Origin: Acholeplasmataceae bacterium
GTDB lineage: Bacteria; Bacillota_I; Bacilli_A; Acholeplasmatales; Acholeplasmataceae
Assembly (NCBI GenBank): GCA_963675245.1
Contig: OY775910.1
Span: forward strand, 1,562,301-1,626,300
Reading direction: 5' to 3'
DNA: 64,000 bases
Positions within the stretch are counted from its first letter, which is position 1. Every line of letters starts with the position of its first letter. A model generated the notes under the pieces. That model saw only the letters and a program-made list of their open reading frames with translations, did not search any database and had not been told where the DNA came from. This document shows, in pieces, positions 54,050 to 62,703 of this stretch. The position numbers and the translations under genes are program-made.

Positions 54050-55030
54050 TTATTTCAAATTAGGTATATCTCTTACATCAATCATAAACCGGCAATACTC
54101 GTCTCCTTTAAGGGCATTTTCGAGTGGTTTAGCCTTTAGTGGTCGTCCAAAGATGACTTCATATCTTCTTTTGACAAATCCACCACTACAATGACACCAA
54201 AGTGCATCTATATCTTTCAAATCATCGGTGATTCTTTCTCTTGCAAATGGACAATGACATGCATAATACCTTTTATCCGTATGTGTTTTAGCTTCTAAAA
54301 ATTTAATAATATCATAAGGAATTTTAGTTTCATAAATATAACCATCTTTATAGACGCCACCTTGTATTTCAGGATTTGATGCAACAAAATCGACAACGTC
54401 ATGTGTCATTTTCTGTTCAAACCAAGGTTTTCCTGATTCGGCGTGTGCTCTTAATGTTTCAATCTGTCTTTGATGATAACTATTTAAATAAGCAGTTAAT
54501 GATTCTGATGCCTCATATGCAGCCTTTTCTTCATAAAATGCCTCATCAGGTATACCATGATTGTTGCCAGATAAAACACGTTCAAATAAAGATTCAGTCG
54601 GTAATTCATCTTTTAATAAAATCATCAATTTTTCAGTATATAAAGGTAACTTTTCAGGTGTTGTACCCAACAAAGGTAACGTGAACTTTTCGGTGATACG
54701 TTTTCTTGCAACATCACCTTTTACTTTTTCGAGACGATTAAGAATCCGTTCAAAAACACCAATACCACCTGTGTATTGTGTAAGCCTTATATAAAGATCA
54801 GTTCTTCCAATCATGTAAAAGTAACGCATCAAACCATAAAACATTTCAAGTCCGAGTGTTTGTTCTTTTAGAAGTGCACTAATCAGATGATCAACATCTT
54901 CTACAGATGCATGATCAACACCTTTTTCACTCATTTTATCAAGTCTTTCAATGACATGCTTTGCAATGTCAAACCGCTCATCTGTGAGATGATTTAAATC
55001 ATATTTCTCCTTGAGCTCATTTAGCTTCAT
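54050..55030 (-). CDS. Cys-rich putative metal-binding protein (DUF6144/V4R-like C-terminus)
   Basis: YYACHCP, WCHCSGGF and GDEYCRF. Confidence 0.6.
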   Translation of the reverse strand: MKLNELKEKYDLNHLTDERFDIAKHVIERLDKMSEKGVDHASVEDVDHLISALLKEQTLGLEMFYGLMRYFYMIGRTDLYIRLTQYTGGIGVFERILNRLEKVKGDVARKRITEKFTLPLLGTTPEKLPLYTEKLMILLKDELPTESLFERVLSGNNHGIPDEAFYEEKAAYEASESLTAYLNSYHQRQIETLRAHAESGKPWFEQKMTHDVVDFVASNPEIQGGVYKDGYIYETKIPYDIIKFLEAKTHTDKRYYACHCPFARERITDDLKDIDALWCHCSGGFVKRRYEVIFGRPLKAKPLENALKGDEYCRFMIDVRDIPNLK

Positions 55031-55511
55031 ATGCGTACCTACCTAAATCCAATCTAAATTCTTTATCACCATTATCAGCAATCCCTATATAGTCAAATCC
55101 TATTTTTGAAAGTAAGTTTAATGATGCAATATTTTCGTTATGTGCGCTTGCAATCATCTGTGTTATTCCTTTATTTCTAAGATAAGGAATGATGCCTATT
55201 ATAGCTTCATAAATATAACCTTGCCTGGCATGTACAGGATGTATTGTATAGCCTAGATGAACTGTATTTTTGTTGGCTTTCACATATAAATCTCCTAGAA
55301 GTTCATCTGTCATTTTCTGTGTAATAGCGAGCTGAACACCTTCAAAAATATCAACCTTATCAACAATGATCATATCTCTATATTCATCCTTTGTATGACC
55401 CTTAAAATCTTGATATATCATCCATTCATCATTATTTCTATATGAGATAAATGTATCAAGATCTTTTTCTATAAATGCTCGGATGGCACATCTATCTGTT
55501 GTAATGTTCAT
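55017..55511 (-). CDS. GNAT (RimJ/RimL-like) N-acetyltransferase
   Basis: LGYTIHP...RQGY and NIASLNLLSKIGF; ATG 55511 after AAGGAG. Confidence 0.85.
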   Translation of the reverse strand: MNITTDRCAIRAFIEKDLDTFISYRNNDEWMIYQDFKGHTKDEYRDMIIVDKVDIFEGVQLAITQKMTDELLGDLYVKANKNTVHLGYTIHPVHARQGYIYEAIIGIIPYLRNKGITQMIASAHNENIASLNLLSKIGFDYIGIADNGDKEFRLDLGRYAYEAK

Positions 55512-55579
55512 ATTATATAACTCCTTTATAAAGCTATTTATATGTCCCAAAGACACTTAACTATCGTGTTAATTCTATA

Positions 55580-57136
55580 TCAAGTTTCATGTACTTGATG
55601 ACAATGAGGACAAATGATATCTCCCTTATAATCTATTTTTGTAATGTTTCTATAATACATAGAAGATTCAATTTTTTTATGATAGTACCAAAGTTCTTCA
55701 TGTTTGAAATCATGCTTATTAATGGCATATTTCTTTAAATGAGCATTATCAGTATAGAAAAATGATTTACCTGTCGTTGGACATGTATCTTCTTTAATTT
55801 CTGTCATACATGTATGACACTGATACACCTCATGGTACTTGTCTTTTTGAAGCTTCCCACCACAAAATGGACATATATCTCTTTTCTTATCCGCGTAAAT
55901 CATACCTTTCAGTATCATTTGTTGAATACGTCTAAATGAATCAATATCTTCCATACTGATATAGATATCTTGTTGATTGATGTAATCATCATCAAACTGA
56001 TTAACTGTGATAATTTCATCAACACCAAAATCTTTTTTATATTTTTTGATTTCTTTAGTATCATAATGGTTCGCCACTAACATAATTTTATATGACTTTT
56101 CCTTCGAAAAATATAAAAATATTTCTTTTTTATTATTATTAAAAATATCTAGTGTCCAACCCTTAAAAGTAAATGGTGTATCTAAGGAAATTAAGTTCAT
56201 TTTAATCTTAGGATCTAATTCAAAATTAAAGTGTCCAACAGCAAAAATCGTGAGGATCTGAACGTAGGTCAAATAATCTCTATTAAGATGCTCAAAATCT
56301 ATGGCTTCTATGTTATCATCGACTTTTGCAAGATTACTTAATAAATGTTTATACGTTTTATAGACCATGCGATAATCTTTTTGCATAAGAAAAATATTGG
56401 TTTTTTTGAGTTTTAAATGTCGATTTCGTTTCTTGTTTTTTTGATAAATTGGTCTGATTAATCTTGGATTAATCGCTTGACTAATTTGTGCTAGTTCATG
56501 CAATAATGTCTTTGATAAATCAAAATATTGACTAAAATCTCTGATATAGCCAGTATGTAATTTACCGATTGCCAAAAAGTATTTCATATGATTGACTTTT
56601 TCTAATAGATTAAAACTCATGATGTTGCTAGCATATAGCAAACTATTAAGTGTTCTTCTATTTTTCTTAATCATCAATAAAATATCATCAATAAAATTAC
56701 AGAAAATAACATTCTCATAAATGCTGTAGTCATCTTCATAAATTCTTGTTAATAATTTTCTCGGTTTTACTCTACTATCATTAATATTAGCGACATATTG
56801 TGTATGATTAGCGAGATGAAGTAATGTGTTTTGATTAATAATACGGGCATTTTCTACTGGTAAAACATCATCTGTATCTTTTAAAACAATAATTGGCTTA
56901 CTAAAGATTCTCTTAATTGCAGGAATTGATTTTTTAAGCTCATGAAGTGCAAGATCAAGTTTGTCAAAATCAAAATCTGGTTCAATAGAAAATAATGTCA
57001 TATCATGGACAACATAGTAATCAAATTCAACATACGTGACCATCTGATGTTTTTTAACAAAATCCTGAATCCCTTTTAGTAGTGACACATTACGATAATA
57101 GGCTTCAACCATTTCTTTGCTAATGTGTTTTTTCAT
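55580..57136 (-). CDS. DUF2357 (McrC-like N-terminal) protein with C-terminal Cys clusters
   Basis: ARIINQNTLLHLA, PRKLLT, YSIYENVIF and LKKTNIFLMQKDYR pattern; C-terminal CPFC, CHTC, C and CPHC; ATG is 1 nt after the GTPase stop. Confidence 0.7.
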   Translation of the reverse strand: MKKHISKEMVEAYYRNVSLLKGIQDFVKKHQMVTYVEFDYYVVHDMTLFSIEPDFDFDKLDLALHELKKSIPAIKRIFSKPIIVLKDTDDVLPVENARIINQNTLLHLANHTQYVANINDSRVKPRKLLTRIYEDDYSIYENVIFCNFIDDILLMIKKNRRTLNSLLYASNIMSFNLLEKVNHMKYFLAIGKLHTGYIRDFSQYFDLSKTLLHELAQISQAINPRLIRPIYQKNKKRNRHLKLKKTNIFLMQKDYRMVYKTYKHLLSNLAKVDDNIEAIDFEHLNRDYLTYVQILTIFAVGHFNFELDPKIKMNLISLDTPFTFKGWTLDIFNNNKKEIFLYFSKEKSYKIMLVANHYDTKEIKKYKKDFGVDEIITVNQFDDDYINQQDIYISMEDIDSFRRIQQMILKGMIYADKKRDICPFCGGKLQKDKYHEVYQCHTCMTEIKEDTCPTTGKSFFYTDNAHLKKYAINKHDFKHEELWYYHKKIESSMYYRNITKIDYKGDIICPHCHQVHET

Positions 57137-57137
57137 A

Positions 57138-59828
57138 CTACTCACTATCTAATCGTTTAATAAAATCAACGCATTGATTTAAGTTCAGTTTTTCAAATGC
57201 CATTTCAAGTTGTTCTTTGTCATCAATTGTTTTCACTTCTAGCTTCGCAACAACTTTACTTAGCAATATTTTTTCAATCGCTTCACTTTCAACATTTTCA
57301 TCTGGAAAACAAGCTTTATATATATTAACAAAGTCTTCTATTTGTTTTAAAATACGATTACCAAATGAGATATTAAATGGTGCTAAAAGTACTTCAACTT
57401 GCTTAATAAGTTCACTGTTTTCAGCATCAAAATCACCATTCTGTTTTGCGGATTCAAATAATTGATTCATTGTTTCATAATCATAGAACTGTTTTGACAT
57501 TGGCTCTGTATAGTTACGAACTTTAGGAGCACGTTTTGTAAAATTCATGGTATGCGCACGGTCATATACTTTATCTGATATAACAAATGTCGATTCATCA
57601 CGATTCGCTGTACCAATAAACCATACGTTTGGTGGTACCTTTAATGTATTACCATTTTCTAATGCAAGATATTCAACAGATTCTCCATCTACTTTTCGAT
57701 CAAGTTTGATATTGATAAGCTTCAATTCACGTTGATCTGCTTCATTTTCCATGAGTGATAAGAAATCTGAGAAATAATATTCAATGCGTGATAGATTCAT
57801 TTCATCAAGCAATATAAATGTAAAAATCTCTTGATTTAATGCCGCTTTATATAATGCAATTGTAAATTTTTTAGGAGTATATTTCATTGAGAATTCATTA
57901 TAATACCCTAATAGTTCATTTTTATCTTTCCAAGAAGATTCAACTTCTATAATTTCACAATTACCAAATACTGCTTCAGAAAAGATCTTAGGTAAACTCG
58001 TTTTACCAGTTCCTGACATCCCTTGTAAAATCGATAATTTACTGGCACCTAAACCAGAAACAAATGTCGCGATATCTTCAGGTGTATAGGATAAATGTAA
58101 TCTTGAATTTCTTGCATAATCAACGATAAAATTGATTAATTTATTGAGAGACGCTTCTTCAACTTGAAGTTGTTTCCGCTTTGTAACATCTTCAATATAT
58201 AGATCTTTATTCATATCAATCACAGTAAACGCTGGACTAGGATCAAAGTTACCATACACATCGTCTTCAATACTATTAGAAGCAGAAACACTTTGTCCCT
58301 GATCAGATGCATTATCTAGTGCTAGAGCATTTTCATTTGATAATGATAATTGATCGCGATCAAATGCTTTTCTAATAAACATGAGAATCAGTATTGAAAT
58401 CGCAGCAACTAGTGCATAAACAGCGTCAGTTGATATGTTGTATTCATAGGTTAAATCACTCGGAAGATTGATATTATAAAAATCAAAAATATTCATAATT
58501 ATCACACGATCAATTTCTTGTCCGATTTGGAAATAATATCCTGAAACACCAATTAAAAAGACAAAGAAAATATTAACTGCAGTAGCTGTTTTAACAATAT
58601 CACTAAAACGACTATATTTGGCAAAATAGCTTGACAACGCAACCAATAGACTAATACCTGAGGATATGAACATCACCACAAGCATAAAAGCAACCAATCG
58701 ATATGCTGGATCTAAATTGACATAATCTCTTAATATATCTAATCCTGTTAAATTAATGGTGTTCGTGTACATTCCCGATGTGATGTTAATTTTTATAATT
58801 GAAACAATGAGTAAAATACCTGTGATTGCACTCAATATAATCACATAAATTAATGGTTCAACTTTCGGGTATGTAATGGTGACATCATGATATACTTTTT
58901 GTTGATACGCATCAAATTTTCCTTTAAAAATGGAAAAAGCGAAGATAACAAATGCCATTAGCAGCATCGGTATAAATGCATACGTTTGAGCAGTATTACC
59001 TTGTAATGTGTAATACATATGCATCGCTAATCCCATCAAAAAAAACATGAGTGTAGCTACTGCGGTATACGTGATTAAGTTTTTAGATTTATTGATAAAT
59101 CTTTCTTTATTGTAAAAGTAGTTAGATAAACAATGTGCGAAATATAAAATAATGCTCATAAAGAAAACAAAATTGAATAGGAAATAAATGATGTTTTCGA
59201 TTTGGGTATCACCCATAAATAGAACATTAATTAAAATACTAAAATATGTCGTATTTGGATAAATGAGCGCGTATAACGGTATGAAAAAAGTCGTGATTAA
59301 AACAAGTATCGCAAAAACATCAATCAGTAAAACATAAAGTGGAATTTTCGTACTCGTTAATTTAATATCTTTTTCATCACGTTCTTGTTCTCTTGTCTCT
59401 TGCAAAGCTTTTGTTCTAAAAATAAGCAAAACAAACATGACAACTATCAATACGAAACTAACAATCGTTAATACTAATGCAAATATTGATAAGTACTTAA
59501 GAATCGATTGAAAGACGATGAGTAATGTTTCAAAACCAAGGAAGGTAACAATTGATACAATGAACCCCCAATTATTCTTTCTTAGTAGGCTATAAGCTGA
59601 TAAAAGTATTGGTAAAATTGATACATAAAATAAGATCACAAAGATAAAACCGTATATATTTACAAATGCACCTTGTGACAACTCACTTGACAATGACCAA
59701 AAATTCTCATTGCTGTATGGTGTCGTTAGATTCAGTGACATAATGCTCAAATTCAAAAAAAAGACCAAGAGCATTAATCCAATCATTAGAGAACCTGTAA
59801 ACCATGGTTTTTTAAATAGATTTTTCAT
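57138..59828 (-). CDS. McrB-like AAA+ GTPase fused to an N-terminal ~12-TM membrane domain
   Basis: Walker A GMSGTGKT, ELLGYYN, Walker B LLDEMNLSRIEYYFSDFLS, NVWFIGTANRDEST and SDKVYDRA; residues ~10-490 hydrophobic; ATG 59828 after AAGGAG. Confidence 0.88.
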   Translation of the reverse strand: MKNLFKKPWFTGSLMIGLMLLVFFLNLSIMSLNLTTPYSNENFWSLSSELSQGAFVNIYGFIFVILFYVSILPILLSAYSLLRKNNWGFIVSIVTFLGFETLLIVFQSILKYLSIFALVLTIVSFVLIVVMFVLLIFRTKALQETREQERDEKDIKLTSTKIPLYVLLIDVFAILVLITTFFIPLYALIYPNTTYFSILINVLFMGDTQIENIIYFLFNFVFFMSIILYFAHCLSNYFYNKERFINKSKNLITYTAVATLMFFLMGLAMHMYYTLQGNTAQTYAFIPMLLMAFVIFAFSIFKGKFDAYQQKVYHDVTITYPKVEPLIYVIILSAITGILLIVSIIKINITSGMYTNTINLTGLDILRDYVNLDPAYRLVAFMLVVMFISSGISLLVALSSYFAKYSRFSDIVKTATAVNIFFVFLIGVSGYYFQIGQEIDRVIIMNIFDFYNINLPSDLTYEYNISTDAVYALVAAISILILMFIRKAFDRDQLSLSNENALALDNASDQGQSVSASNSIEDDVYGNFDPSPAFTVIDMNKDLYIEDVTKRKQLQVEEASLNKLINFIVDYARNSRLHLSYTPEDIATFVSGLGASKLSILQGMSGTGKTSLPKIFSEAVFGNCEIIEVESSWKDKNELLGYYNEFSMKYTPKKFTIALYKAALNQEIFTFILLDEMNLSRIEYYFSDFLSLMENEADQRELKLINIKLDRKVDGESVEYLALENGNTLKVPPNVWFIGTANRDESTFVISDKVYDRAHTMNFTKRAPKVRNYTEPMSKQFYDYETMNQLFESAKQNGDFDAENSELIKQVEVLLAPFNISFGNRILKQIEDFVNIYKACFPDENVESEAIEKILLSKVVAKLEVKTIDDKEQLEMAFEKLNLNQCVDFIKRLDSE

Positions 59829-59960
59829 GTACCAATCACTCCTTATCAATTGACTTGATTGATAATTTCTTTATTTTATTTTATCACATGTGATAGATAG
59901 ACCCACAAAAATAAAAAGCATTTAAAATGCTTTATCATTTAAAATGCTCATCACGTGGAT

Positions 59961-60467
59961 TCAATTGAGTGATTTCAAACACGTCTTCTTTAATGTAAGT
60001 CTAGTTTCATGTAATTCATAATGATGTTTTTTATGTACATTTTTTGTATGACCATCTTTTTTAAATCCGTAGTTTTCATACCACATGATAGATGCTATAT
60101 TTGATGTTAAAACCCACACAATAATCTGCTGATATTGGTCTAACCGCTTCACGCATTCATCCATTAAAGCTTTTCCAATGCCGCGTTTTTGATATGCCTT
60201 AAGTACATAGATTGCCATGACTTCTCCTGTATCATCTAGCTCATCTCTACTTTCACAATACGCAGCAAAACCTACAACGTTACCCTCGTATTCAGCAACA
60301 ATCGTGTTTTCAGGATATTTAACAGTTATTTTTTCACAATATTCAAGTGTTTGCCTACTTAAAAATTCAGGGTCCATTAATCCTGTATAAGTCTCAATCC
60401 ATGACTGATAATGTATATAAGACTTCTGCTTATAATCTTTTTCTTCCATATCTCTAATAATGATCAT
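59961..60467 (-). CDS. GNAT family N-acetyltransferase
   Basis: SWIETYTG, AIYVLKAYQKRGIGKAL and WYENYGF. Confidence 0.9.
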   Translation of the reverse strand: MIIIRDMEEKDYKQKSYIHYQSWIETYTGLMDPEFLSRQTLEYCEKITVKYPENTIVAEYEGNVVGFAAYCESRDELDDTGEVMAIYVLKAYQKRGIGKALMDECVKRLDQYQQIIVWVLTSNIASIMWYENYGFKKDGHTKNVHKKHHYELHETRLTLKKTCLKSLN

Positions 60468-60560
60468 AATCGACCTCGCATAAACTTTAAATTTATTCTA
60501 TCATAGAAAATTTATTAATTCTAAAGAAAAAAGACCTCGCGGTCTTCATAAATATAACTT

Positions 60561-60647
60561 TGGTGCCTGCGGTCGGACTCGAACCGACACGAGCTTTCAC
60601 TCACCAGATTTTGAGTCTGGCACGTCTACCGATTTCATCACGCAGGC
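60561..60647 (-). tRNA. tRNA-Leu (CAA)
   Basis: GCCTGCG acceptor stem, CCAGA-CTCAAAA-TCTGG anticodon arm, long variable arm, GGTTCGAGTCC and encoded CCA; promoter upstream and terminator (60526-60546) downstream. Confidence 0.97.
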
Positions 60648-60770
60648 AACTTGCTAACATATTGTAACACAATTCTTGTCTAATTTTCAATTCTCTTATC
60701 GAAATTATGCGTATAAAACAACCCTTAATTTAATAAGTGTTAAAATAGGGTTAGAAAGAGAGGGAAAAAT

Positions 60771-60980
60771 ATGAAAAGAAATGTTGGTTCAACGGATAAG
60801 TATATTCGTATTATTTTGGCTGTGGCACTCGTTGTAGGTGGCATATTCACAGTATCATCATTATTATGGCTAAGTATTATCTTCTTTGTATTTGCAGCGA
60901 TCTTCACCATGACAGCTATCACAGGACGTTGTCTACTATATATACCATTTGGTATTAATACGTGGCATAAAGACGAATAA
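60771..60980 (+). CDS. DUF2892 (YgaP-like) small membrane protein
   Basis: NVGSTDKYIR...CLLYIPFGINT. Confidence 0.85.
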   Translation: MKRNVGSTDKYIRIILAVALVVGGIFTVSSLLWLSIIFFVFAAIFTMTAITGRCLLYIPFGINTWHKDE

Positions 60981-61035
60981 ATATTAACTAGATAAAAAGC
61001 CTTTGTAAGGCTTTTTTTTATAGAAAAAGCGATGA

Positions 61036-62703
61036 TTACATCGCTTTTAGTGTTTCAATACCTAATAATCTTAAACCTTCATTTATCACAATTTGAATGG
61101 ATCTCGCAAGTAGTAGGTTTGCTTGTAATCGACCTACTTCATCAACTAAAACTCGTTCTTTCCCGTAAAAACTATTGAATGCCTGTGCTAAAGAAAGTAT
61201 ATATTTAGCAATAACACTAGGACTATCGCTGTCTTTCGCTCTTTCAACCATTTCTGGGAATTGATCAACGAGTTTAATCAGTTCAAAATAATGATCAATT
61301 TTATATGTATTGTAATCAACTGATGATGTATCAATCGTTTGATCTTTTAACATTGATTCAATACGGACACTACTATATTGTAAATATGGTCCAGTTTGTC
61401 CTTCAAATTTTAGCATGCTCGCCAAATTAAAATCAACATCTAAATGTCTTTCATTTTTCAAGTCATTAAAGATGATAGCACCAACACCAACCGCTTTTGC
61501 CACATTGTCTTTATCATCTAAACCTGGATTTTTTTCTGTGATGGCTTGTTTGGCTTCGTCAACTGCTTGATCAATCACAGCTTCTAAGCGCTTTGCTTTA
61601 CCACCACGAGTTGACATTTTTTTGCCATCTAGCAAAACTAAACCGAAATTAATATGCTCAATTTGAATATCCCAATCGAGTAATTTAGCAACAGATGCTA
61701 ATTGTTTAAAATGAAGTTGTTGTTCATTACCAACGACATATAATACCTTTTTAGCACCATAAGTATCCATACGATATTTTAATGCTGCTAAATCTCTTGT
61801 CATATAGAGAGTTGCGCCATCTGTTCTTTTAATCAGAGCAGGTGGTAAATCTTCACCTAAATCAACAATGGTAGCGCCTTCGTCAATTTTTAATAAACCT
61901 CTAGCTTCTAATTCATCAACAATCGCATCCATTTTATCGTTATAAAATGCTTCACCATGATAGGAATCAAAAGAGACATTTAAAACATCATACATGTGCA
62001 TAAATTCATGCAACGACTTTTCTCTGAAGTTTTCCCAAAGTGTCATATAATGTGAATGACCTTCTTCGAGTGCTTTGAATACATCTCTTGCTTCATCTTC
62101 CAGTGAAGGATTTTTTTCTACTTCATCATGAAAACGAACATATAAAGCCTGTAAAGCATTAATTGGATCTTCTTCCACTTCTACTGGATTACCCCATTTT
62201 TCATAAGCAACAATCATTTTACCAAATTGGGTACCCCAATCACCTAGATGATTAACCCCGGTGACATTTACACCACATTTTTCGTAGATATTTTTGAGTG
62301 AATGTCCAATCATGGTTGACCTTAAATGACCCACAGAAAAGCTCTTAGCAATATTTGGTGATGAATAATCAATGACAATATTTTCACCTTTTGATTGTAA
62401 TTGTCCAAATGAATCTTGTGCTTCATAGACCTCATTTAAGACCCGCTTACTGAATATAATACGCTTTAAATATATATTTAAAAAGCCACCTGTGAACTCA
62501 ACATGATCAATTGCTTCATGAGAAAGTGCTGGTTCAACTTTTTCAAACACTGCTTGTGGTGACATCTTCCATGTCTTTGCAAAACTAAATAGCGGAATAG
62601 CTAAATCAGCTAATCCACGTTTTGGTCTTTCAATAGCAAATTCATCGATATCAAATACATTTGATAATTTTACTTTTAAATCCTGTTTAATTTGATTAAT
62701 CAT
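61036..62703 (-). CDS. argS: Arginyl-tRNA synthetase
   Basis: DYSSPNIAK, GHLRS, NHLGDWGTQFG, KMSTR and GPYLQY. Confidence 0.97.
   Translation of the reverse strand: MINQIKQDLKVKLSNVFDIDEFAIERPKRGLADLAIPLFSFAKTWKMSPQAVFEKVEPALSHEAIDHVEFTGGFLNIYLKRIIFSKRVLNEVYEAQDSFGQLQSKGENIVIDYSSPNIAKSFSVGHLRSTMIGHSLKNIYEKCGVNVTGVNHLGDWGTQFGKMIVAYEKWGNPVEVEEDPINALQALYVRFHDEVEKNPSLEDEARDVFKALEEGHSHYMTLWENFREKSLHEFMHMYDVLNVSFDSYHGEAFYNDKMDAIVDELEARGLLKIDEGATIVDLGEDLPPALIKRTDGATLYMTRDLAALKYRMDTYGAKKVLYVVGNEQQLHFKQLASVAKLLDWDIQIEHINFGLVLLDGKKMSTRGGKAKRLEAVIDQAVDEAKQAITEKNPGLDDKDNVAKAVGVGAIIFNDLKNERHLDVDFNLASMLKFEGQTGPYLQYSSVRIESMLKDQTIDTSSVDYNTYKIDHYFELIKLVDQFPEMVERAKDSDSPSVIAKYILSLAQAFNSFYGKERVLVDEVGRLQANLLLARSIQIVINEGLRLLGIETLKAM

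Follow-up and report, generated by a model that had tools for sequence, protein, structure and literature searches.

McrBC is the textbook example of a GTP-driven restriction motor. One branch of its GTPases is recognized by an NxD signature, and we know of no form from this branch that has been studied experimentally. According to the parts of the survey by Bell et al. used here (eLife 2024, PMC11090510), the signature, usually followed by E or D, marks a large branch of McrBC whose DUF2357-type McrC partners are unusual, and inactivated nuclease folds are common within it; the portions of recent surveys on which we draw describe this branch as having been rebuilt many times. Two of its described forms come closest to the locus reported here. 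CoCoNuT systems (CnuB/CnuC) combine an NxD GTPase and a DUF2357-type McrC homolog with coiled coils, CSD domains, HEPN or other nucleases, helicase and TerY-P genes, while CoCoPALM pairs a membrane-associated NxD McrB GTPase, bearing a single FtsB-like helix and a coiled coil, with a DUF2357 partner among signal-peptidase-like and pilin-like neighbors (PMC11090510, same parts). The present locus is a pair of genes, A and B, in a 64,000-nucleotide stretch of an Acholeplasmataceae bacterium (assembly GCA_963675245.1, contig OY775910.1, positions 1,562,301 to 1,626,300), referred to below as the window. The pair is derived from McrBC: gene A joins an NxD GTPase to a 12-helix membrane domain that replaces the usual N-terminal nucleic-acid reader, and gene B encodes a nuclease-dead McrC-like partner. 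Together they form an intact, conserved, self-contained, horizontally mobile two-gene module.

Positions are those of the window, and the two genes and the ribosome-binding site are placed as follows.

57138..59828, minus strand: gene A, membrane domain and McrB-like GTPase, 896 amino acids (from open reading frame, start codon and ribosome-binding site).
59839..59844, minus strand: Shine-Dalgarno sequence AAGGAG, 10 nt 5' of the gene A ATG, read from the sequence.
55580..57136, minus strand: gene B, McrC/DUF2357-like partner, 518 amino acids, running from an ATG 1 nt after the gene A stop to a TGA at 55582-55580.

Under translation table 11 gene A is held in a minus-strand frame open over 57138..59849, and its start is likely the ATG at 59828. 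One base separates its TAG stop (57140-57138) from the gene B ATG at 57136. A Mycoplasma code was considered and rejected: table 11 leaves both frames open, table 4 extends nothing, and gene B itself ends in TGA, so that the standard code is in use. The closest proteins bear names from Acholeplasma and related organisms.

The C-terminal part of A is the GTPase, with the following landmarks.

57141..58208, minus strand: residues 541-896 of A, McrB-like AAA+ GTPase, core plus lid (profile search, PADLOC and VIA structure comparison).
57996..58022, minus strand: Walker A motif GMSGTGKTS, residues 603-611, invariant in 30 of 30 aligned homologs.
57795..57812, minus strand: Walker B motif LLDEMN, residues 673-678, with D675 and E676 invariant; aligns with IDEINR of McrB.
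57594..57605, minus strand: NxD signature N742-R743-D744-E745, invariant in 30 of 30 homologs.

A first-pass annotation, made by a model from the DNA letters alone, had described this region as an McrB-type AAA+ module and had linked the NxD signature to the DUF2357-associated branch that includes CoCoNuT. The four motifs that it quoted are all in the translation: GMSGTGKT (residues 603-610), LLDEMNLSRIEYYFSDFLS (673-691), GTANRDEST (739-747) and DKVYDR (752-757). The assignment itself held when a profile of 11 GTPase domains was compared with solved structures, since its three best matches were all E. coli McrB (E 2.7e-6 to 7.5e-6) and, beyond McrB, nothing fell below E 0.3; the link to that branch agrees with Bell et al. 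2024 (PMC11090510) in the parts concerned with this branch. The profile alignment to E. coli McrB spans the Walker A, Walker B and sensor-1 motifs, and places N-R-D of A against the one-residue-longer N-T-A-D of McrB. Pfam gave AAA_5 for A at E 0.011, below cut-off. The PADLOC model PDC-M26A matched A at E 8.3e-50 in the GTPase part only, over approximately positions 283-441 and 519-676, or 296-459 and 519-674, of the 724-position profile. Neither a full-length PDC-M26A match nor a match to the cognate partner model, which together define the PADLOC candidate PDC-M26, was found for A-B, and our literature search found no mention of PDC-M26.

Structure by itself cannot tell McrB from MoxR or dynein in the case of A. 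VIA scored the model of A at Z 15.6 with MoxR 2r44, about 14.5 with dynein AAA3, 13.1-13.7 with E. coli McrB and 13.5 with RavA. The MoxR proteins (2r44, RavA, CbbQ, NorQ) thus share the AAA+ structural clade of A with equal or slightly higher scores, but they are partnered by a VWA protein where A has a DUF2357-like one, and A carries the NxD motif and has no sequence-profile match to them. Clustering with MoxR was the outcome that the annotation had named as speaking against its own assignment; the sequence profile finds McrB and no MoxR chain at E <= 1, with the structure scores tied within about 2 Z. With McrB similarity, the NxD motif and a DUF2357-like neighbor all present, A can be placed on sequence grounds in the NxD branch of McrB-like GTPases.

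Gene B appears to be built of three parts.

56327..56974, minus strand: residues 55-270 of B, DUF2357-type helical bundle with a beta finger (hhalign, Pfam intermediates, VIA, conservation).
55886..56296, minus strand: residues 281-417 of B, alpha/beta domain at the position of the McrC nuclease, with no conserved D...(D/E)xK triad (model, VIA, conservation).
55583..55885, minus strand: residues 418-518 of B, zinc-ribbon module with CPFC, CxxC, C452, CPHC-x3-H (H516) and an RNIT motif (conservation, weak Pfam matches).

The gene starting 1 nt after the stop of A had been called DUF2357-like in the first-pass annotation. Its position is as claimed and the relationship was recovered through profiles and intermediates; what did not materialize is a direct Pfam call. 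Pfam assigned B to no family directly, DUF2357 included, and gave weak zinc-ribbon matches only, and PADLOC had no relevant match for B or for five B-like proteins. A full HMMER scan with B found 671 relatives at E <= 0.001. Among 20 proteins picked from the more distant of these relatives, 7 pass the Pfam gathering cut-off for DUF2357 (PF09823) and 9 match it at E <= 0.01. Between a profile of 40 B sequences and a DUF2357 protein recognized by Pfam, hhalign found an alignment of 205 columns (probability 98.3%, E 1.7e-14); E. coli McrC was not detected from its sequence by the B profile (probability 0.2%). With the structure model of B (mean predicted local distance difference test score, pLDDT, 85.9; predicted template modeling score 0.81), Foldseek gave no match at E <= 0.001, and McrC chains ranked 2, 3 and 5. 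VIA aligned the model with McrC at Z 8.1, 7.5, 6.7 and 6.3, reaching to about residue 412, and the best match was 6ut5_G (Z 8.1, 137 residues, root-mean-square deviation 4.0).

The helical bundle of B carries the conserved motifs LPVE, KPRKLL and YxIYEN; the finger is placed at residues 84-136, and K127, next to R126, is a 100% basic position. The alpha/beta domain that follows gives weak matches to nuclease folds (Bax1 Z 4.6, Can2 Z 4.5, Ecl18kI Z 4.2), and the model suggests that the nuclease fold itself is probably retained. A PD-(D/E)xK triad was not found: residues 305-400 hold no acidic or lysine position that stays invariant in 40 homologs, the strands conserve at best K345 (72%), Y349 and E374 (82%), and the only invariant non-cysteine positions of B are P125, E141, H183, Y197, Y255, F298, S400 and F401. 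Judged by this conservation pattern, B has lost the catalytic residues of the McrC nuclease. The cysteines of the third part are better kept, with C422, C425, C440 and C443 invariant and C452, C509, C512 and H516 conserved in at least 90%, and this C-terminus resembles the CPxC zinc ribbon of CnuC, as it is described in the relevant part of Bell et al. 2024 (PMC11090510).

The N-terminal half of A has no counterpart in canonical McrB and consists of two groups of helices and a linker.

59379..59828, minus strand: residues 1-150 of A, transmembrane helices (TM) 1-4, an accessory four-helix bundle (hydropathy, model helices).
58359..59351, minus strand: residues 160-490 of A, TM5-12, conserved core of the membrane domain; the predicted outer loops carry small beta hairpins (hydropathy, model).
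58209..58358, minus strand: residues 491-540 of A, low-confidence linker from the membrane domain to the GTPase (pLDDT below 50 for residues 492-525).

That the first 490 or so residues are almost entirely transmembrane had already been noticed in the first reading of the sequence, and two approaches agree with it. A Kyte-Doolittle scan gives about 12 hydrophobic segments in residues 7-490, and an AlphaFold2 model from a 30-sequence alignment (mean pLDDT 77.7) gives 12 long helices in the same places, with short beta hairpins in loops 5-6 and 9-10. The positively charged loops alternate in a pattern that fits an N-in/C-in topology. TM1-4 are missing from approximately ten Clostridial members of 750-800 amino acids, which align only from about residue 150-230 onward. 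In the core, the residues conserved family-wide across 71 sequences are P184, E324, G362, Y369, G430, Y432, I435 and R486, and P184, G362, Y369, G430, Y432 and I435 cluster in predicted outer loops and helix ends. We argue from sequence conservation and the model that the membrane domain would be functional rather than a mere anchor, because these conserved residues lie on its predicted outer face.

Sequence searches of Pfam, NCBIfam and the PDB linked the membrane domain to no known transporter family. The NCBIfam scan gave nothing meaningful, direct PDB searches with single sequences gave no match, and the ESM Atlas yielded no usable match for residues 1-500. A search for the membrane domain as a stand-alone protein among shorter proteins returned four matches only, which were fragment-like (323-464 amino acids, 48-58% identical). 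Residues 1-150 match generic four-helix bundles only (LemA Z 10.7, invertase inhibitor Z 10.5), and the best fold match of residues 317-490 is Fzo1 (Z 9.0); all three scores are below what is meaningful for helical bundles. With the whole model of A, the Foldseek and VIA match lists were filled by AAA+ chains. Internal repeats sought with hhalign among thirds and halves of the domain gave probabilities of 23-84%, which are weak given its hydrophobic composition.

The fusion of membrane domain and GTPase, and its pairing with B, are conserved. The full-length form of A occurs in 7 of 41 related genomes, including 3 of the 10 from the genus. With the membrane domain as query it was found in 21 of 301 genomes of the class and 11 of 179 genera, with frames of 889-918 amino acids save for three that are cut or broken. 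A pattern scan of species-representative genomes with two GTPase signature peptides returned at least 667 stretches, at least 612 of which were confirmed as relatives. The best 80 of these confirmed relatives, on which the locus counts out of 80 are based, come from Acholeplasma, Mariniplasma, Izemoplasmatales, Anaeroplasmataceae, several metagenome-assembled genomes (MAGs) of Bacilli, and Clostridia. Most of these 80 loci hold an A frame of 889-918 amino acids built in the same way. Gene B lies directly downstream of A in 78 of them and in all 10 loci of the related-genome set; of the two loci that deviate, L071 is on a contig that breaks off within A, and at L114 calling of open reading frames (ORFs) recovered neither gene. 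The latter is a Clostridia MAG contig of 5894 bases with a tblastn match to residues 200-896 of A in which table 11 ORFs give neither A nor B; frameshifts, stop codons or another genetic code could be the cause. A conserved third gene was not found: apart from A and B, a gene cluster is shared by at most 12 of the best 80 loci. Two copies are visibly damaged: in one (G280:C1:1109195-1111884, L018) A is a 666-amino-acid frame with two TAA codons in the GTPase part, and in L112 (10500-12071) B is broken into two ORFs (320 and 195 amino acids). The first-pass annotation had suggested a possible tie between the module and life without a cell wall. This idea is rejected because walled Clostridia carry the module: the Clostridia among the best 80 include MAGs of Christensenellaceae, Acutalibacteraceae and Oscillospiraceae with the same architecture, and at one locus (L032) the pair adjoins Mur ligase genes.

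A GTPase tree was built from 25 domains: 15 of the membrane form, five short paralogs, three CoCoNuT-like, one from Lactococcus, and E. coli McrB as outgroup. All 15 membrane-form domains fall on one branch (SH-aLRT 99), and four of the five short paralogs form a branch of their own (SH-aLRT 99), with the fifth, short_L116b, unplaced on a long branch. Several long branches make the deeper order unreliable. The three A copies from the same genus do not group together (approximately unbiased test, p = 0.023, for a group named after the identity tables had been seen and with G237, a very long branch that is probably a mis-called ORF, kept in). The distribution of A-B is patchy and incongruent with taxonomy.

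Compared with canonical McrBC of E. coli and Thermococcus gammatolerans (6hz4, 6ut6, 6ut5), A-B shares the AAA+ core motifs and their order, the fold of the GTPase (A with McrB, Z 13.1-13.7), the fold of the partner (B with McrC, Z 6.3-8.1), and adjacent, translationally coupled genes. It differs in having NxD rather than NxxD, no DNA-binding N-terminal domain and no conserved nuclease triad, in adding zinc ribbons and a membrane domain, and in that the B profile misses the E. coli McrC sequence. With CoCoNuT, as presented in the portions of Bell et al. (PMC11090510) used here, A has in common the NxD followed by an acidic residue, and B has in common the DUF2357-type McrC homology, the inactivated nuclease fold and the C-terminal CPxC zinc ribbon. 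The A GTPase moreover matches PDC-M26A, and its nearest plasmid relatives (37-39% identical) lie in CoCoNuT-like four-gene arrays. In contrast to CoCoNuT as described there, A-B has no coiled coil, CSD, HEPN or other nuclease, helicase or TerY-P genes, the N-terminus of A is a 12-helix membrane domain, and its GTPases form a separate clade; long coiled coils, extra nucleases and CSD-type domains were sought by Pfam in A and B and none was found, nor does a conserved third gene accompany the pair.

CoCoPALM, in the passages of PMC11090510 that describe it, is like A-B in its membrane-associated NxD McrB GTPase and DUF2357 partner, but has the single FtsB-like helix with coiled coil and the signal-peptidase-like or pilin-like neighbors where A has 12 helices. 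No signal-peptidase or pilin genes flank A-B at the 35 loci whose neighbors were examined, and the A GTPases are in a separate clade. Paralogs of CoCoPALM type are present in the same genomes; the one in the window's own genome is 35% identical to A, and four aligned paralogs are 33-38% identical. This paralog, outside the window (L011, G000:C1:1396000-1410000), is a 512-amino-acid GTPase with one membrane helix and a coiled coil. Its partner is a 617-amino-acid DUF2357 protein (E 4.9e-12), and it is flanked by two proteins that resemble signal peptidases and by six secreted ones bearing a 'YAWF'-type signal anchor, an arrangement that fits the description of CoCoPALM in those passages of Bell et al. 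2024 (PMC11090510). Similar paralogs of approximately 510-520 amino acids occur in most of the related genomes.

The A-B pairing appears to be undescribed. No system with this architecture was known to the first-pass annotation, and none emerged from the literature, where we found no description of a polytopic membrane McrB, or from the supplements of Bell et al.; the same authors promise another paper that will deal with the other NxD systems. Where membrane helices are concerned, the main text of Bell et al., in the parts used here, names only the FtsB-like CoCoPALM, EssC, ShdA and a 4-TM protein (PMC11090510), and its four supplements do not contain the words 'Acholeplasma', 'transmembrane', 'membrane' or 'CoCoPALM'.

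In the window, A-B lies between two GNAT genes and near argS, purB, a phosphotransferase system EIIC gene and an amino-acid ATP-binding cassette transporter. The slot between the conserved GNAT gene and argS (55017-61036) here holds A-B and a GNAT gene. In the closest relative, G006, whose arginyl-tRNA synthetase (ArgRS) is 80% identical, the flanks are kept and the slot holds a tyrosine integrase and four small ORFs; elsewhere it holds an IS3 element (G002) or two unrelated genes (G007), or is empty (G003). The slot is an integration hotspot. A 493-amino-acid protein at 47111-48592 matches the PADLOC DrmC and Mokosh models through a phospholipase D (PLD)-type domain and is probably a cardiolipin-synthase-like housekeeping enzyme, not a defense protein. 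Upstream of A, a perfect 14-nt palindrome, TATCACATGTGATA (59882-59895), lies about 55-65 nt 5' of the start and could be an operator, and just before it, after the upstream GNAT gene, there is a hairpin with a T run at approximately 59915-59933. A promoter and terminator scan of 54800-60200 found sites no more numerous than in shuffled sequences.

Flanking genes were examined at 35 loci: 10 from related genomes (76 flanking proteins) and 25 others (150 flanking proteins), the latter being the first of 31 eligible loci (186 flanking proteins) left after 9 syntenic duplicates or already scanned loci had been dropped. In the set of 10, BREX genes for PglZ and BrxL stand directly upstream of the pair at L032, two adjacent reverse-transcriptase genes are present at L026, one locus has ISL3 and IS1595 transposases, and the remaining loci are ordinary. 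PADLOC matched 16 of the 150 flanking proteins at E <= 1e-8, and by Pfam all but two of these have generic domains. Genes for membrane or lipid functions turn up repeatedly, at most three genes away from the pair or else in the hotspot, namely TMEM164-family, HlyIII, FabV-type enoyl reductase, diacylglycerol (DAG) kinase and chloramphenicol-acetyltransferase-like genes (L050, L108, L110, L128; L033, L059, L081; L028, L053, L057). Their recurrence is in part synteny among relatives, and it may hint at a membrane-related role. In an uncultured Mollicutes MAG (L098, 2026-14120) the pair lies close to the replication origin: one flank carries dnaN, dnaA and a hybrid histidine kinase, the opposite flank rnpA, yidC and an R3H/Jag-like gene.

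On the model of the homologous McrBC, A would form a ring under the membrane, and B would plug into the pore of the ring and stimulate GTP hydrolysis. Since neither a nuclease nor another soluble effector is present, the output of hydrolysis would, by elimination, be mechanical work on or through the membrane domain of A itself. The zinc-ribbon and dead-nuclease part of B may serve as a cytoplasmic sensor or adaptor, possibly for nucleic acid. Once foreign DNA or phage had been detected, the membrane would be opened or perturbed, or entry would be blocked, with abortive infection or exclusion as the result. An immune role of A-B is plausible, and the reading that we prefer, at a probability of approximately 0.42, is that of a horizontally mobile conflict module that acts on the membrane or on entry. 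It is favored because of the ancestry of the pair, its patchiness, its incongruence with taxonomy, its hotspot location and a few defense neighbors.

Several observations weigh against a conflict module. There is no convincing defense gene within about 10 genes of A-B in the window, defense-type neighbors occur at only 2-4 of the 35 loci, and among the 150 flanking proteins the defense-like ones number two, an AbiEii (L076) and a full-length PDC-S07/NUDIX candidate (L054); the flanks are mostly housekeeping or metabolic genes. At E <= 1e-8, integrase or transposase domains were found in none of the 150 proteins at the 25 loci. No member of the A family was found on a plasmid or phage: the 287 plasmid and 2 phage records are all below 60% identity, and the plasmid and phage relatives inspected are CoCoNuT-like arrays. 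Column identity across 71 sequences is about 0.9 in the GTPase core versus 0.3-0.55 for the membrane part of A. Even between families the GTPase keeps 76-83% identity, compared with 66-67% for ArgRS in 4 of 5 same-genus genomes, a pattern that resembles that of a cellular machine. The paralogous module of CoCoPALM type is tied to surface-fiber genes and not to immunity, as far as the parts of the survey on CoCoPALM go. Ring formation by A, GTP use, binding of A to B and an effect on the membrane are all predicted by analogy, and a complex prediction of two A GTPases with residues 1-280 of B, run without controls, returned scores of 0.13 and 0.02 (mark 0.32), which speak neither for nor against an assembly.

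The main rival is a non-immune membrane machine: as in CoCoPALM, an McrBC-type motor would have been taken over for a cell-envelope process; a protein, lipid or polymer would be moved, inserted or extracted through the membrane domain of A, with B as regulator. A cellular membrane role of this kind is favored by the mostly housekeeping genes on either side, by how strongly the GTPase is conserved and by the fiber-linked CoCoPALM paralog, which in the same genomes is a membrane-anchored NxD McrB and DUF2357 pair among signal-peptidase-like and 'YAWF' proteins (L011) and fits CoCoPALM as described in the parts of the survey used here. The conserved residues on the predicted outer face of the membrane domain are also consistent with it, as are the TMEM164-family, HlyIII, FabV-type enoyl reductase, DAG kinase and, in addition, MMPL genes that recur nearby, allowing for synteny. 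However, no conserved third gene offers itself as substrate or pathway partner, the membrane domain belongs to no transporter family recognized in our searches, and as a core function such a machine sits badly with patchiness within the genus, taxonomic incongruence and a hotspot location. We consider it a rather doubtful explanation, although one to be taken seriously. Considerably less probable is a membrane-tethered, Type IV-like restriction system in which the alpha/beta or zinc-ribbon part of B is an unrecognized nuclease that attacks DNA during its entry at the membrane. McrBC ancestry, the alignment of McrC chains through residues 281-417 with the weak nuclease-fold matches there, and the fair conservation of E374, D399 and K345 would suit such a nuclease, but the strands at the PD-(D/E)xK position hold no invariant acidic or lysine residue, A has no DNA-recognition domain, and inactivated nuclease folds are, as the cited parts of PMC11090510 have it, common in this branch. 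The idea of a chimeric assembly, of gene decay or of a chance ORF finds some echo in the few damaged relatives (A of G280, B of L112), but the window copy is a single open frame with a ribosome-binding site and coupled genes, many independent assemblies show this architecture with the same length, and the catalytic motifs are all invariant; the conservation data rule this out for the window copy, and its likelihood is negligible.

The A-B family is compact, consisting of two genes, sharply defined and widespread, with the at least 612 confirmed relatives noted above. It is without any nuclease and must therefore have a different mode of action from the restriction motor. We tentatively propose, with more doubt than belief, that A-B is the first McrBC-derived machine that targets the membrane and not nucleic acid: a ring of GTPases, each with a membrane domain of 8-12 helices of its own, gated by a nuclease-dead, zinc-ribbon McrC-like subunit, would use GTP to open or remodel the membrane, either as a new effector of abortive infection or exclusion or as a GTP-powered translocase, and would have spread horizontally through hundreds of Bacillota species. 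If the module is immune, it would represent a new class of membrane-acting effectors driven by an AAA+ GTPase. Otherwise it would join CoCoPALM as the second example of a restriction motor put to use in the biology of the cell envelope.

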